From: a virus
Taxonomy: Duplodnaviria > Heunggongvirae > Uroviricota > Caudoviricetes
IMG/VR virus record: IMGVR_UViG_2563366828_000005
Length of the DNA: 40,620 bases
Reading direction: 5' to 3' (one strand)
The position numbers and the translations under genes were made by a program. Each line of letters begins with the position of its first letter. Position 1 is the stretch's first letter. Positions 5,564 to 8,144 of the stretch are shown here, one piece after another. A model generated the notes under the pieces. That model searched no databases. It saw nothing but the letters and a program-made list of their open reading frames with translations, and had not been told where the DNA came from.

Positions 5564-5926
5564 TTAATGACCTGCTGCGCGGAGTTTTCCGTCAGGTTCA
5601 CCGGCAAGAGTCAGTAATTGTCCCTGGTCTTCCTGCAGAATAGTCAGGCGACCACCGCGATTGACATACATCGGCGTTTCGGTGGTGTCTTCTTCGGAAA
5701 TTTTCCCGCGGTTAGTCGGGCGAACATATGAGAGTTTGTGTTTGATTTTCACACGGTTCTCATCAAATGGTTCGATTTCCAGGTTGAGTGAGACCTTACC
5801 TTTGGTTTTCGTGTTCATCACACCGGAAGCGACTTCACTGAGAACTGCGCCGATTTTGGTTTCAAATACGCCGCCGTCCAGCTCCCCGATAAATGCCTGC
5901 ACATCAGTACTGCGTTCGCTAGCCAT
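5564..5926 (-). CDS. Hypothetical early-left protein (120 aa)
   Basis: Start chosen at ATG (MASERSTDVQ) preceded by GGAG about 9 nt upstream; the 226-aa ORF in the track extends into a GC-rich non-coding stretch and is probably too long. Confidence 0.5.
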   Translation of the reverse strand: MASERSTDVQAFIGELDGGVFETKIGAVLSEVASGVMNTKTKGKVSLNLEIEPFDENRVKIKHKLSYVRPTNRGKISEEDTTETPMYVNRGGRLTILQEDQGQLLTLAGEPDGKLRAAGH

Positions 5927-5949
5927 TTTGCTGCTCCTCATCATATCGA

Positions 5950-6390
5950 CCCTGCAAGGTCGGTTAGTTTCTCCACAAAACAGAGAAGAACACCTGCGGT
6001 GACTGCCGCCCGGATGGATTGGGTTATGAGCCCGTCGTCCGGTGATGCTCTTCTCTGTTTTGTAAAAAGGACGGTACCAGCCGGAAGCAAGGGTACAAAC
6101 TGGTACCGCCAGGACTACACACAGCATAAAGTTGTGGTGCCGGGTGCCTCCCGGTGCCTGGCGAAGGTTGCACACCAGGCGGGTGGGTATCCACAGAAGG
6201 TCGACTGTCAGCCTCAACCTTAACCCGCGTGCGCTGAGCCGCATTCACCACAACGCTAAGGATTCTCTCTGGTTGAAAATACTTAGCTGTTATGTGCCTG
6301 CTTTTAGCCACATCAGGCGAGGTGGACCTGGTTATTCCCCAACAACAAGGATTCGGTTAATCTGGTTATCCCCAACAACGCAAAAGGAAA
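5950..6390. other. GC-rich, highly structured non-coding stretch (candidate ncRNA or regulatory element)
   Basis: No convincing ORF; 15-bp perfect inverted repeat ACAAAACAGAGAAGA (5975-5990 / 6049-6063), GGTACCAG/CTGGTACC inverted repeat, tandem GGTTATyCCCCAACAAC motif (6340-6380). Confidence 0.3.
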
Positions 6391-6394
6391 AGAA

Positions 6395-6829
6395 ATGTCC
6401 GGTAATATCTATACGCTGTACAAATCCCACTGTGAAAATGTTGGAAAGTATCGGGGCATTGAAATCAGTGGGGTAGTGTCATCAGTCGAAATAAGCAAAG
6501 TTGAATCAAGGGCAACATTACTTACTCTTCTGGACCTTGTCTTAAATGAGCACCGGAAGAAATTCGGCACACCCTATAATCAGTTGAATGGGAAAAAGGC
6601 TCTGGTTCACCTTATTCTGATGAAGCATCACTGGATGCCAAAACAGATTAATGAGATGAAATTTGATGAACTTCTTCTTTCAATTCAGGATGAACTCACG
6701 CTTGATAAAATAAGTGTAACCGCCCAGAAATTTTTAGATTATCGAGACTGGAGATCACAAATTCATCACTTTGATGATTTTGACGAAAATGAATGGGATC
6801 CTAATTTGTCTGCACAATATCTAAAGTAA
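6395..6829 (+). CDS. Hypothetical 144-aa protein, AT-rich moron on the strand opposite the early-left operon
   Basis: Clean ORF with AAGGA about 10 nt upstream; AT-rich versus flanks; hairpin plus T-run terminator downstream on the same strand. Confidence 0.55.
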   Translation: MSGNIYTLYKSHCENVGKYRGIEISGVVSSVEISKVESRATLLTLLDLVLNEHRKKFGTPYNQLNGKKALVHLILMKHHWMPKQINEMKFDELLLSIQDELTLDKISVTAQKFLDYRDWRSQIHHFDDFDENEWDPNLSAQYLK

Positions 6830-7007
6830 CATCCTGTGATAAAACCGTGATTTCCTGATCCAGTTTTTTTAAGGAGTCTATTGTTTCCTGTCGATAAGAC
6901 AGCACTTCACGAAGCTGGTTTATAGCTGCCAGCTTCTTTGTCATCCACTCATAAATTTCCTCATCTGTGTAGCCAGGCGCGACGATTTTTGGTTCTGTTT
7001 TGTGCAT
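6801..7007 (-). CDS. Hypothetical 68-aa protein, first ORF downstream of the putative PL
   Basis: ATG (MHKTEPKIV) preceded by GAGGAGG at 6-nt spacing; 3' end overlaps the convergent 144-aa gene by 29 nt. Confidence 0.45.
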   Translation of the reverse strand: MHKTEPKIVAPGYTDEEIYEWMTKKLAAINQLREVLSYRQETIDSLKKLDQEITVLSQDVTLDIVQTN

Positions 7008-7064
7008 TTCACACCTCCTCAAGTTATCAGTTACTTGTTGATGGGGACCAGATTGTTAAAGAGC

Positions 7065-7090
7065 GAAGCGTCCTATAGGGCGCTTTTTTT
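7065..7090 (+). terminator. Intrinsic terminator, plus strand
   Basis: Stem AAGCGTCC / GGGCGCTT with TATA loop followed by TTTTTT. Confidence 0.45.
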
Positions 7091-7263: not shown

Positions 7264-7300
7264 TTGCGAGATATGCAAGTAATATTTGCGAAATATGCAA
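7264..7300. promoter_or_regulatory. Putative OL operators / PL region
   Basis: Two 15-bp sites TTGCGAGATATGCAA and TTGCGAAATATGCAA 7 bp apart; same TTGCG-type motif recurs in the cI-cro intergenic region. Confidence 0.45.
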
Positions 7301-7354: not shown

Positions 7355-8047
7355 TTAATTATGTCTCTTAAGGGTTTGCGACTGACTGATTAAGACCTTT
7401 CCAAAGACCATAAATCGGTGTTCGTTTTCGCTAGTAATTCCCCATTCACGGTAAATCTGGTTATCAGAAATCACCAGCAGTTTGTCAGGAATCATTTGAA
7501 GTCTTTTAACGTATATTTTGTCATCAAAACCAAAGACATATATACCATCACCATCAAACTGATTGATGCTGACATCAACGAAGATGAGATCTCCTGGCTC
7601 AATGGTTGGACACATACTGTCCCCACGAACGTTGATAACTTTGATGTGATTGGCTGGTCGTCCGCCGAACATTGATACAGCATTATCAGTTCTGTATTCG
7701 ATGGCATGAATCACATCAATGACATCACCGCCCTGGATAAGGCCATTTCCCGCACTGGCACTGATATCCAGCATTTCAATACGGAACACATCCTTCACCT
7801 GCGCAACATCCTCATTATTACTGTTTTTATATACAGTATTACTTTTGAGGGCAGAGGTAAAGAGATCAGCAATATCAACACCTAAGCTCTTGGCAATATT
7901 ACTCAGTGTTTGTTCGGTAAATTGTTTTTGCTTACCCGTTTCTAAGCGCGAGATGTTCGCCGCATCTACTCCTATTGCTTCAGCGAGATCGGCGATTTTC
8001 ATGTTCTTCGCTTGGCGAAGTTGTCTGACTCGGTTTCCTATGTTCAT
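7355..8047 (-). CDS. cI: CI-type prophage repressor (HTH_XRE N-terminal domain, S24 LexA-like peptidase C-terminal domain)
   Basis: 230-aa ORF; N-terminal HTH (QLRQAKNMKIADLAEAIGVDAANISRLETG), C-terminal GDSMCPTIEPGDLIFVD autocleavage-type motif; divergent from a cro-like gene. Confidence 0.85.
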   Translation of the reverse strand: MNIGNRVRQLRQAKNMKIADLAEAIGVDAANISRLETGKQKQFTEQTLSNIAKSLGVDIADLFTSALKSNTVYKNSNNEDVAQVKDVFRIEMLDISASAGNGLIQGGDVIDVIHAIEYRTDNAVSMFGGRPANHIKVINVRGDSMCPTIEPGDLIFVDVSINQFDGDGIYVFGFDDKIYVKRLQMIPDKLLVISDNQIYREWGITSENEHRFMVFGKVLISQSQTLKRHN

Positions 8048-8144
8048 GCGTTTATTACATTTCTTTATTGCGTGATAAGCAAATCAACTTGCGCAAAATA
8101 ATTGCGTGAAATAACATGCATAACGCGCAATATTTGGAGGGTAT
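8048..8144. promoter_or_regulatory. OR / PRM-PR divergent promoter-operator region
   Basis: 97-bp AT-rich intergenic region between divergent cI and cro-like genes with repeated TTGCG(T/C) motifs (e.g. TTGCGTGATAAGCAA at 8068-8082). Confidence 0.55.

Follow-up and report, generated by a model that had tools for sequence, protein, structure and literature searches.

The closest described relatives of the locus studied here are two kinds of prophage small RNA (sRNA). Canonical copies of the first, the STnc100/PasD/EcOnc27 family, lie in late regions near Q, stx or lysis genes, number 11 in EDL933, and are expressed and bound by Hfq; a discrete Hfq-bound sRNA has been shown in enterohaemorrhagic Escherichia coli (EHEC), enteropathogenic E. 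coli (EPEC) and Salmonella (PMC5331693; PMC12711010; bioRxiv 10.64898/2026.05.13.724894). For the second, DicF (RF00039), an RNase III-made 3′ end of the 72-nt RNA has been reported (PMC5069750), whereas a 2023 study of dicBF puts the RNase III cut upstream of DicF and not downstream (bioRxiv 10.1101/2023.04.14.536235). We analyzed positions 5950 to 6390 of a 40,620-nucleotide viral sequence (Caudoviricetes; IMG/VR record IMGVR_UViG_2563366828_000005; the whole of this sequence is called the window), a stretch that a sequence-only reading had described as non-coding and dense in nested inverted repeats. The finding is real, it is RNA, it lies on the minus strand, and it consists mostly of known families (STnc100/PasD, DicF-like) in a new arrangement. 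We consider it probable that the stretch is a non-coding RNA island in the operon of the early leftward promoter PL, made up of an STnc100/PasD-type domain, a DicF-like sRNA with its terminator, and a tRNA-fMet-like three-way junction (TLE); positions are given in Table 1.

Every repeat that had been listed was found again, with two corrections, one to a palindrome and one to a tandem motif that is discussed further below. The perfect 15-bp inverted repeat pairs 5975-5989 with 6049-6063 around a 59-nt interior, and with its arms lengthened to 25 nt (5975-5999 with 6039-6063) the complementarity is 84%. The first palindrome, CGGTACCAG / CTGGTACCG, pairs at 9 of 9 positions (6072-6080 and 6100-6108). 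The palindrome GGTGCCGGG...CCCGGTGCC holds a 5-bp Watson-Crick hairpin (CCGGG/CCCGG), but the longer pairing proposed for it includes two G-U pairs and forms on the plus strand only. A repeat search added a perfect 9-bp pair, 6131-6139 with 6246-6254, that encloses the whole central domain. Folding of the minus strand between 6055 and 6290 gave a minimum free energy (MFE) of −97.3 kcal/mol (z = −4.5), which none of 200 shuffled sequences equalled; for the plus strand the values were −85.7 kcal/mol and z = −1.7, with 10 of 200 shuffles as good. The minus strand between 5927 and 6068 folded at −59.5 kcal/mol (z = −6.25, 0 of 200 shuffles as good). All convincing structure is on the minus strand. 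The suggestion that the repeats belong to a structured RNA held up, as the stems are backed by covariation over many homologous prophages, but it is not one element: there are three separable modules, and their distribution is modular.

The central module is a member of the STnc100/PasD family in both fold and sequence. At gathering thresholds Rfam reported nothing for the window. A sensitive scan matched the STnc100 model (RF02076) to the minus strand at 6284-6062 over its full length (model positions 1-206 of 206; 43.1 bits, E = 7.5e-8), and all other Rfam families, including riboswitches, ribozymes, retrons and other non-coding RNAs, gave only chance-level matches (E of at least 0.25). The Infernal search that had been proposed as a check thus finds this family, although only below the curated threshold. 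More than 120 IMG/VR contigs contain the 20-nt core CCGGGAGGCACCCGGCACCA unchanged, and their flanks fall into 68 clusters at 88% identity. The features typical of the family, namely AAU, a UNNGC loop, and an A followed by CCGGG-AGGCA-CCCGG-CACCA, are all present in the window; among 113 unique sequences, AAU is kept in 112, the A before helix P5 in all 113 and the AGGCA loop in 106. Helices P1, P2, P4 and P5 were recovered from the window sequence by MFE folding.

Covariation across homologous prophages, also proposed as a check, supports the stems. P1, P2 and P5 were counted on an alignment. For P1 the inner 8 bp were scored across the family: one position is G-C in 85 sequences, A-U in 21 and G-U in 6, and the next is U-A in 63, C-G in 39 and U-G in 11. 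One pair of P5 is G-C in 71 sequences and U-A in 42. In a 35-sequence alignment, 94.9% of cells in P1, P2 and P5 together were paired versus 80.7% after shuffling and 32-49% in slid controls, and 12 pairs had changed on both sides, a number matched by 0 of 500 shuffles. Because the registers of P4 and of a pseudoknot differ between clades in the MAFFT alignment, these were tallied within each sequence, with swapped partners as the control. For P4, 49 different stems were seen. In almost all sequences the P4 loop can pair with the segment that immediately follows P2; this pairing has about 40 variants, and a helix of at least 6 bp forms in 87% of matched partners versus 16% of swapped ones; in phiES15 the pairing is AAGGCUG/CAGCCUU, compensatory relative to the window. 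The dedicated paper that we consulted on the STnc100 family does not mention this pseudoknot. G-U pairs are present on the sense strand of the domain. A Rho-independent terminator follows 3′ of the domain, with a stem at 6108-6072 and then UCCUUUUUAC.

Comparison with the canonical family divides its members into two types. The window copy shares with STnc100/PasD/EcOnc27 the same P1, the J1/2 AAU, the UNNGC loop of P2, P4, and P5 stacked on CACCA; the two have the same 20-nt core, in both the domain is followed by a single-stranded linker and an intrinsic terminator, and both are prophage-borne. It differs in several respects. P2, which reads CCCCC...GG(N)GGG in the canonical form (type A), is flipped to GCGGC...GC(A)CGC in the window (type B); the window copy has no sigma-70 promoter of its own; it would lie in an early-left operon by the immunity region rather than downstream of Q, stx or lysis genes; and its 3′ module is DicF-like. 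A TTGnnn-N16-18-TAnnnT pattern ending just before P1 was found in 24 of 51 type-A cluster representatives. This stringent promoter pattern was seen in none of the 7 type-B representatives and in 5 of the 63 unique type-B domains. Besides the window, type B includes ST64B, phiES15, a decayed copy in K-12 e14 and copies in P1-like phages.

Several of these relatives were inspected individually. The type-B domain of phage P1 (L006 2504-2623; 70077-70200 of NC_005856) and of SJ46 (L005) sits between tRNA-Asn/Thr genes and tciA, within the ban operon that C1 controls; no terminator is present, and the tciA ribosome-binding site follows immediately. A compensatory change separates the GCGGUG/CACCGC of phage P1 from GUGGUG/CACCAC. 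A more divergent domain in mEp460 (L007 2700-2830, minus strand), about 230 nt after PL, has the same P1 and AAU and a P5 of the form CCGG-AGAUCAGCA-CCGG, and gave no Rfam STnc100 match at E ≤ 0.01; the family therefore reaches beyond the invariant core used for searching. In e14 the annotated coding sequence (CDS) ymfH (L001 3002-3313) covers decayed copies of all three RNA modules, and its core has a 1-nt deletion and a G-to-A change (29.2 bits). Of the 98 matches from a genome-wide pattern scan, most were due to chance and came from GC-rich genomes without the downstream core; only the enterobacterial ones were kept.

Directly 5′ of P1 the window has an additional hairpin, GCUAAGUAUUUUC / GAGAAUCCUUAGC. 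Reading of the upstream flanks showed that in ST64B and phiES15 this place is taken by a stem with another sequence, and we regard the hairpin as a candidate processing or 5′-end structure. Further upstream, a hairpin CCAC...GUGG with the stretch CUAAAAGCAGGCACAUAACAG (6308-6325, minus strand) is conserved in e14, phiES15 and L161, phages that otherwise differ. It contains no recognisable promoter and lies outside the Rfam model.

The second module resembles DicF. After P1 come UUUAUGCUGUGUGUAGUCCUGGCGGUACCAGUUU..., the 9-bp GC-rich stem noted above as an inverted repeat, and UCCUUUUUAC. This segment can be aligned with DicF, and its alignment is closer with the DicF-like variants found ahead of kilR and other genes of the kil type; over about 30 nt it has three differences from the variant in prophage region L150. 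The nearest DicF-like variants score 42.8 (L150) and 38.1 bits on the Rfam DicF model. The window module and DicF share an A/U-rich 5′ flank, the motif UGGCGGyAyCAGUUU, a terminator with a U-tract, and a probable location in a repressor-controlled early operon of a lambdoid prophage. Both are also physically linked to a type-B STnc100-like domain, as at Qin and Rac-type loci. They differ in the seed (GCUGUGUGUAGUC in the window, UUUCUGGUGACGU in DicF), in the nucleotides of the terminator stem, in the downstream gene, which is yfdP-like rather than kil-type, and in module order, the domain preceding the DicF-like module in the window. The window order repeats what is usual for STnc100: a structured 5′ domain, then a seed, then a terminator. 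Among the 63 unique type-B domains, the DicF-like motif lies upstream in 38 and downstream in 9.

The reverse order is that of Qin-type prophages, where true DicF (76.7 bits) is followed by 12 nt, a type-B domain and then the dicB start codon, an arrangement that 4,646 of 5,426 complete E. coli genomes share. The Qin-equivalent spacer between dicF and dicB in IMG/VR contig L157 (4405-4663) is a type-B STnc100-like domain scoring 39.1 bits. P1 of the Qin-type copies is longer, at about 21 bp (z = −5.55), and is also known in a compensatory variant. In the literature that we found on dicBF, ymfH or DicF and RNase III, the structured dicF-dicB spacer is not described.

The third module, the TLE, is closed by the 15-bp inverted repeat that the sequence-only reading had listed. 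The tip of its arm 1 is GGG-CUCAUAA-CCC, and CGGGCUCAUAACCC (6034-6021) agrees at 14 of 14 nucleotides with the anticodon stem-loop of E. coli initiator tRNA-fMet, as checked against annotated tRNA-Met genes. It thus shares three G-C pairs and the CUCAUAA loop with tRNA-fMet; unlike a tRNA, it has two arms rather than three, with no D arm and no T-loop, and in the window a stem of about 21-25 bp, without a CCA end, takes the place of the acceptor-like one. ARAGORN called no tRNA in the window, the Rfam tRNA model did not match, and no Rfam family matches the TLE. An origin as an attP site or tRNA-gene remnant was considered and rejected: both strands of the anticodon stem are kept, the 3′ half of a tRNA is absent, and int is not adjacent. 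The TLE is apparently an undescribed RNA motif.

More than 120 viral contigs carry the motif, which stands in one of two contexts, and its variants all share one architecture when folded. In the first context, that of the window, it stands after an intrinsic terminator and before a yfdP-like gene, and its closing stem covaries (ACAAAACAGAGAAGAG... versus ACGCAACACACGAGAG...). In the second, in Klebsiella-type phages, it lies 6 nt after tRNA genes and downstream of Q, with a 6-bp GGCCUG/CAGGCC stem followed by NCCA. Pair counts gave 99.2% paired versus 90.3% after shuffling and 26-50% in slid controls; the evidence from covariation is only moderate, because most double changes separate just two lineages. 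An example of the second context is Klebsiella phage RCIP0034 (L328 1503-1572), in which a 70-nt tRNA-like RNA lies 6 nt after tRNA-Arg and downstream of Q. Besides an acceptor-like stem of 6 bp and an anticodon-like CUCAUAA loop, this RNA has one more hairpin and an NCCA end, and it is called by neither ARAGORN nor Rfam; RNAs of this type are also present in L334, L341, L344, L393 and others.

The long helices of these modules could also be read as RNA punctuation. On that explanation, which we regard as somewhat unlikely, the domain and the TLE would mainly be processing and insulation signals for RNase III, P or E that cut a polycistronic early transcript into an sRNA and separate mRNAs, with no function in trans. 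It would account for the Qin-type P1 of about 21 bp, with its known compensatory variant, lying right after DicF, and by our count the RNase III-made 3′ end of the 72-nt DicF (PMC5069750) falls within that helix. The length of the TLE closing stem, the placement of the Klebsiella-type TLE in tRNA arrays with an NCCA end, and the phage P1 domain among the tRNA genes of the ban operon are likewise consistent with it. However, if the domain were only a processing site, the 20 invariant nucleotides and the conservation of a pseudoknot over at least 68 clusters would be left without an explanation. Type-A copies begin at their own promoter and need no 5′ processing, P1 in the window is just 9 bp, and the 2023 dicBF study puts the RNase III cut on the other side of DicF (bioRxiv 10.1101/2023.04.14.536235).

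The statement that the stretch holds no credible open reading frame (ORF) needs qualification: ORFs of 74-114 aa exist on both strands, but none is conserved in frame. Public records annotate ORFs here as hypothetical proteins, as the CDS ymfH in K-12, and as gp34 and gp35 in SfIV, and the 74-aa ORF on the plus strand matches phrog_3651 with E = 1e-49. These annotations would favor a YmfH-like protein on the minus strand or a phrog_3651 protein on the plus strand, or else a decayed gene, with the stems incidental. We consider this extremely improbable. Two frames are needed to align K-12 YmfH with the window and three to align it with ST64B, the 74-aa ORF is broken up over three frames in e14, and its comparison with ST64B gives 50.6% identity for the protein and 77% for the DNA. 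An intact gene in homologous loci, which would have spoken for a decayed pseudogene, was not seen; the called ORFs change frame between close relatives, no open frame is common to the homologues, and some have none at all. Pfam gave no match for the flanking and overlapping ORFs, the PHROG matches of the ORFs are only to families of unknown function, and the phrog_3651 match merely mirrors the DNA conservation of annotated ORFs. The ORF calls are best explained, from these comparisons, as artefacts of a GC-rich conserved RNA locus. As relatives do not keep its reading frame, ymfH probably does not encode a protein, and phrog_3651 was probably built from spurious ORFs over conserved RNA genes together with the antisense strand of yfdP.

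Table 1. Positions of the RNA modules, their helices and the surrounding features in the window, and of sRNAs in other prophage regions.
Feature	Position	Strand	Details
STnc100/PasD-type domain, type B	6131-6254	minus	RF02076 match, core identity, covariation, MFE fold
P1	6254-6246 with 6139-6131	minus	9 bp in the window
J1/2	6245-6243	minus	AAU
P2	6242-6227	minus	5 bp and a bulged A, loop UCAGC
P3	6226-6223 with 6184-6181	minus	
P4	6180-6156	minus	hairpin
P5	6154-6140	minus	CCGGG-AGGCA-CCCGG
Pseudoknot a/a′	6221-6215 with 6170-6164	minus	AAGGUUG with CAACCUU in the P4 loop
Hairpin GCUAAGUAUUUUC / GAGAAUCCUUAGC	6255-6287	minus	directly 5′ of P1; inverted repeat and MFE fold
DicF-like module	6062-6130	minus	A/U-rich linker and seed UUUAUGCUGUGUGUAGUCCUGG 6130-6109; terminator hairpin 6108-6072; U-tract UCCUUUUUAC 6071-6062
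TLE three-way junction	5975-6063	minus	closing stem about 21-25 bp; arm 1 6042-6010; arm 2 6009-5996
yfdP-like leader	5926-5964	minus	hairpin 5964-5945, seen in the 5927-6068 fold; Shine-Dalgarno GAGGAG 5939-5934; ATG 5926
Tandem motif (CTG)GTTAT(T)CCCCAACAAC	6327-6380	plus	two copies 35 bp apart, just upstream of the 144-aa gene
73-aa gene	right of the 144-aa gene	minus	
TTGCGnnATAnGCAA operator-like repeats	about 7264-7300 and 8060-8135		flank the cI-like gene on both sides; second group between cI and cro
cI-type repressor gene	7355-8047	minus	
cro	8145	plus	
sRNA-bearing prophage regions	L002 5232-5308; L222 578-766; L150 11327-11505; L334 597-675		

The prophage that makes up the window is lambdoid, resembles SfV, SfIV and e14, and belongs to E. 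coli or Shigella. Positions 5930-6394 are 98-100% identical to phages Kati, SfIV and SfV, and a match is present in more than half of the complete E. coli genomes searched (2,782 of 5,426). The RNA island is flanked by a yfdP-like gene on the minus strand, whose CDS matches phrog_204 and is called YfdP in the annotation of relatives, and by a 144-aa gene on the plus strand that matches phrog_5286, a family of unknown function. The TTGCGnnATAnGCAA repeats look like the operators OL and OR, and a leftward PL was therefore placed just left of cI, next to the repeats at about 7264-7300. A possible PL is TTGCAT-N17-TATCTT, reading leftward at about 7290-7250. With PL so placed, the island would be part of the early-left operon, between the immunity region and the yfdP-like gene. 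The element lies directly after PL in mEp460, and in ST64B it occupies the gap between cI and yfdP. Its homologue in K-12 e14 is within the SOS-induced ymfH-xisE-intE operon (PMC2634741; PMC12132413). Other Rfam sRNAs (isrK, C4, RalA and isrJ) score above threshold in neighbouring prophage regions, and these early regions are dense in RNA genes.

A long leader, an sRNA or an RNA partner of the adjacent 144-aa gene had been proposed for the structured stretch. A leader or partner of that gene does not fit: the RNAs lie on the strand opposite to the gene and occur without it in SfV, e14, ST64B, mEp460 and phiES15. The tandem motif upstream of the gene was confirmed at 6327-6346 and 6362-6380, although the second copy is one base shorter and only a single exact match exists; in relatives, copy 1 varies between CTAG and CTGG. 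Homology to SfV, SfII and e14 ends at 6325, so the repeats are part of the cassette of the 144-aa and 73-aa genes and not of the RNA modules. These two genes form a convergent cassette (plus and minus strand, respectively; 6395-7022) inserted between PL and the RNA island; it is absent from mEp460 and ST64B, and e14 has ymfI and ymfJ in its place. Terminator-like hairpins lie on the plus strand at 6911-6936 and 7065-7086.

An explanation in which the stretch is a DNA element, such as a recombination site, an operator array or an origin, or an RNA antitoxin or other partner of the 144-aa gene, would draw on the dense inverted repeats, on the two direct repeats by the gene, and on the finding that all 80 of 80 loci with the 144-aa gene carry both the repeats and the RNA element. 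Those 80 loci are 99-100% identical; they therefore amount to one observation and are uninformative on the tandem motif. The element is widespread without the gene, the cI operators differ in sequence and lie elsewhere, and int/att is not adjacent. A DNA recombination or binding site, which the sequence-only reading had offered as an alternative, is unlikely because the pairing is strand-asymmetric and G-U pairs are frequent, and tolerated, on the sense strand. Together, a DNA element or a partner of the 144-aa gene is very improbable.

Returning to the minus-strand RNA island, we infer the promoter, the processing enzymes, the Hfq dependence and the targets of its RNA. Production from PL is proposed because the e14 homologue lies in an SOS-induced operon and the ST64B and mEp460 elements directly follow the immunity region. 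On prophage induction, transcription from PL would first cross the 73-aa gene and the antisense strand of the 144-aa gene. The 124-nt pseudoknotted domain would fold next, followed by the DicF-like module with its A/U-rich linker, seed GCUGUGUGUAGUC, GC-rich hairpin and U-tract. Termination at the U-tract (6062-6066) would yield an Hfq-type sRNA of about 190-225 nt with the STnc100 layout, and by analogy with DicF an optional RNase E cut in the A/U-rich linker might release a DicF-like sRNA of about 65 nt. Polymerases that read through would transcribe the TLE, whose long stem would absorb the U-tract region; this stem is, by analogy, a likely RNase III site, and a cut there may separate the sRNA from the yfdP-like mRNA.

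A number of observations weigh against this account. The promoter scan found no site adjoining the element and nothing promoter-like upstream of 6254, and the single minus-strand promoter match, at 6641-6614, is below chance expectation. Expression therefore relies on the predicted PL, about 950 nt away and across an oppositely oriented gene. A terminator inside the operon needs read-through or antitermination, and a mechanism for neither was identified; the roles given to RNase III and RNase E are analogies only, and the literature on the DicF ends is itself inconsistent (PMC5069750 versus bioRxiv 10.1101/2023.04.14.536235). Expression records cover canonical copies only, and neither the window element nor any type-B copy is among them. 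The STnc100 score of 43.1 bits is below the gathering score of 47, the MFE fold of the window pairs strand a locally and not in the pseudoknot, and the DicF score is insignificant (15.7 bits, E = 1.7, 6123-6069; gathering threshold 48). No target was found for the window RNA, the ftsZ initiation region having been tested by a low-power duplex test: in this crude energy calculation the window RNA was no better than shuffles, and true DicF was itself marginal (z = −1.4).

The conserved fold followed by a terminator could also be that of a cis-acting leader, whether a riboswitch, an attenuator or a put-like antiterminator, that controls the terminator at 6108-6062 and through it the downstream early-left genes, from the yfdP-like gene onward. 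The domain would then sense a ligand or protein or modify RNA polymerase, and the sRNA would be a by-product. Its layout is aptamer-like, with a junction closed by P1, a pseudoknot, and invariant unpaired AAU, UNNGC and AGGCA segments. Type-B copies stand directly before the genes dicB, kilR, kil, tciA and yfdP, phage P1 and Qin have no terminator of their own between domain and gene, and the phages in which the element follows PL have no recognisable N protein at the position that it occupies. Its place would match that of the HK022 put RNAs, the paradigm of cis-acting antiterminators, which lie just downstream of PL/PR: in each case the PL transcript of a lambdoid phage without N has this as its first structured RNA. 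However, the window fold is larger than put and pseudoknotted, family members with a promoter of their own terminate right after the domain, and the HK022 genome contains none of the co-occurring signatures of the domain, as judged by a motif test and not by structural comparison. Terminators and downstream genes are unrelated among members, no conserved antiterminator pairing was seen, no Rfam riboswitch matched, and type-A copies are abundant, terminated, Hfq-bound sRNAs with targets detected by RIL-seq, in which interacting RNAs are ligated and sequenced (bioRxiv 10.64898/2026.05.13.724894; PMC5331693). A cis-acting leader is thus unlikely, and an sRNA-producing island remains our preferred explanation.

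The analysis indicates that the STnc100/PasD family is much wider than the Rfam threshold shows. One of its subgroups has no promoter of its own and is located in early operons of P1-like and lambdoid phages, where it is physically linked to sRNAs of the DicF type and to toxic genes of the kil type, including the well-studied dicBF operon. The annotations of K-12 ymfH, SfIV gp34/gp35 and PHROG 3651 probably mistake RNA genes for proteins. The TLE offers a testable link from phage RNAs to the machinery of translation initiation or tRNA targeting. A further proposal, which we consider quite unlikely, is that the STnc100-type domain, with its about 30 invariant nucleotides, is a portable functional RNA and the TLE a mimic of the initiator-tRNA anticodon arm, both with undescribed biochemical roles. 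If so, the domain could be a protein- or ligand-binding or self-processing module, embedded in prophage sRNAs, in e14 'ymfH' and in the Qin dicF-dicB spacer carried by about 85% of complete E. coli genomes. The TLE could draw VapC/MvpT or other nucleases away from their target tRNA-fMet, or could alternatively bind factors that read the anticodon arm, such as initiation factor 3, the 30S P site or methionyl-tRNA synthetase.

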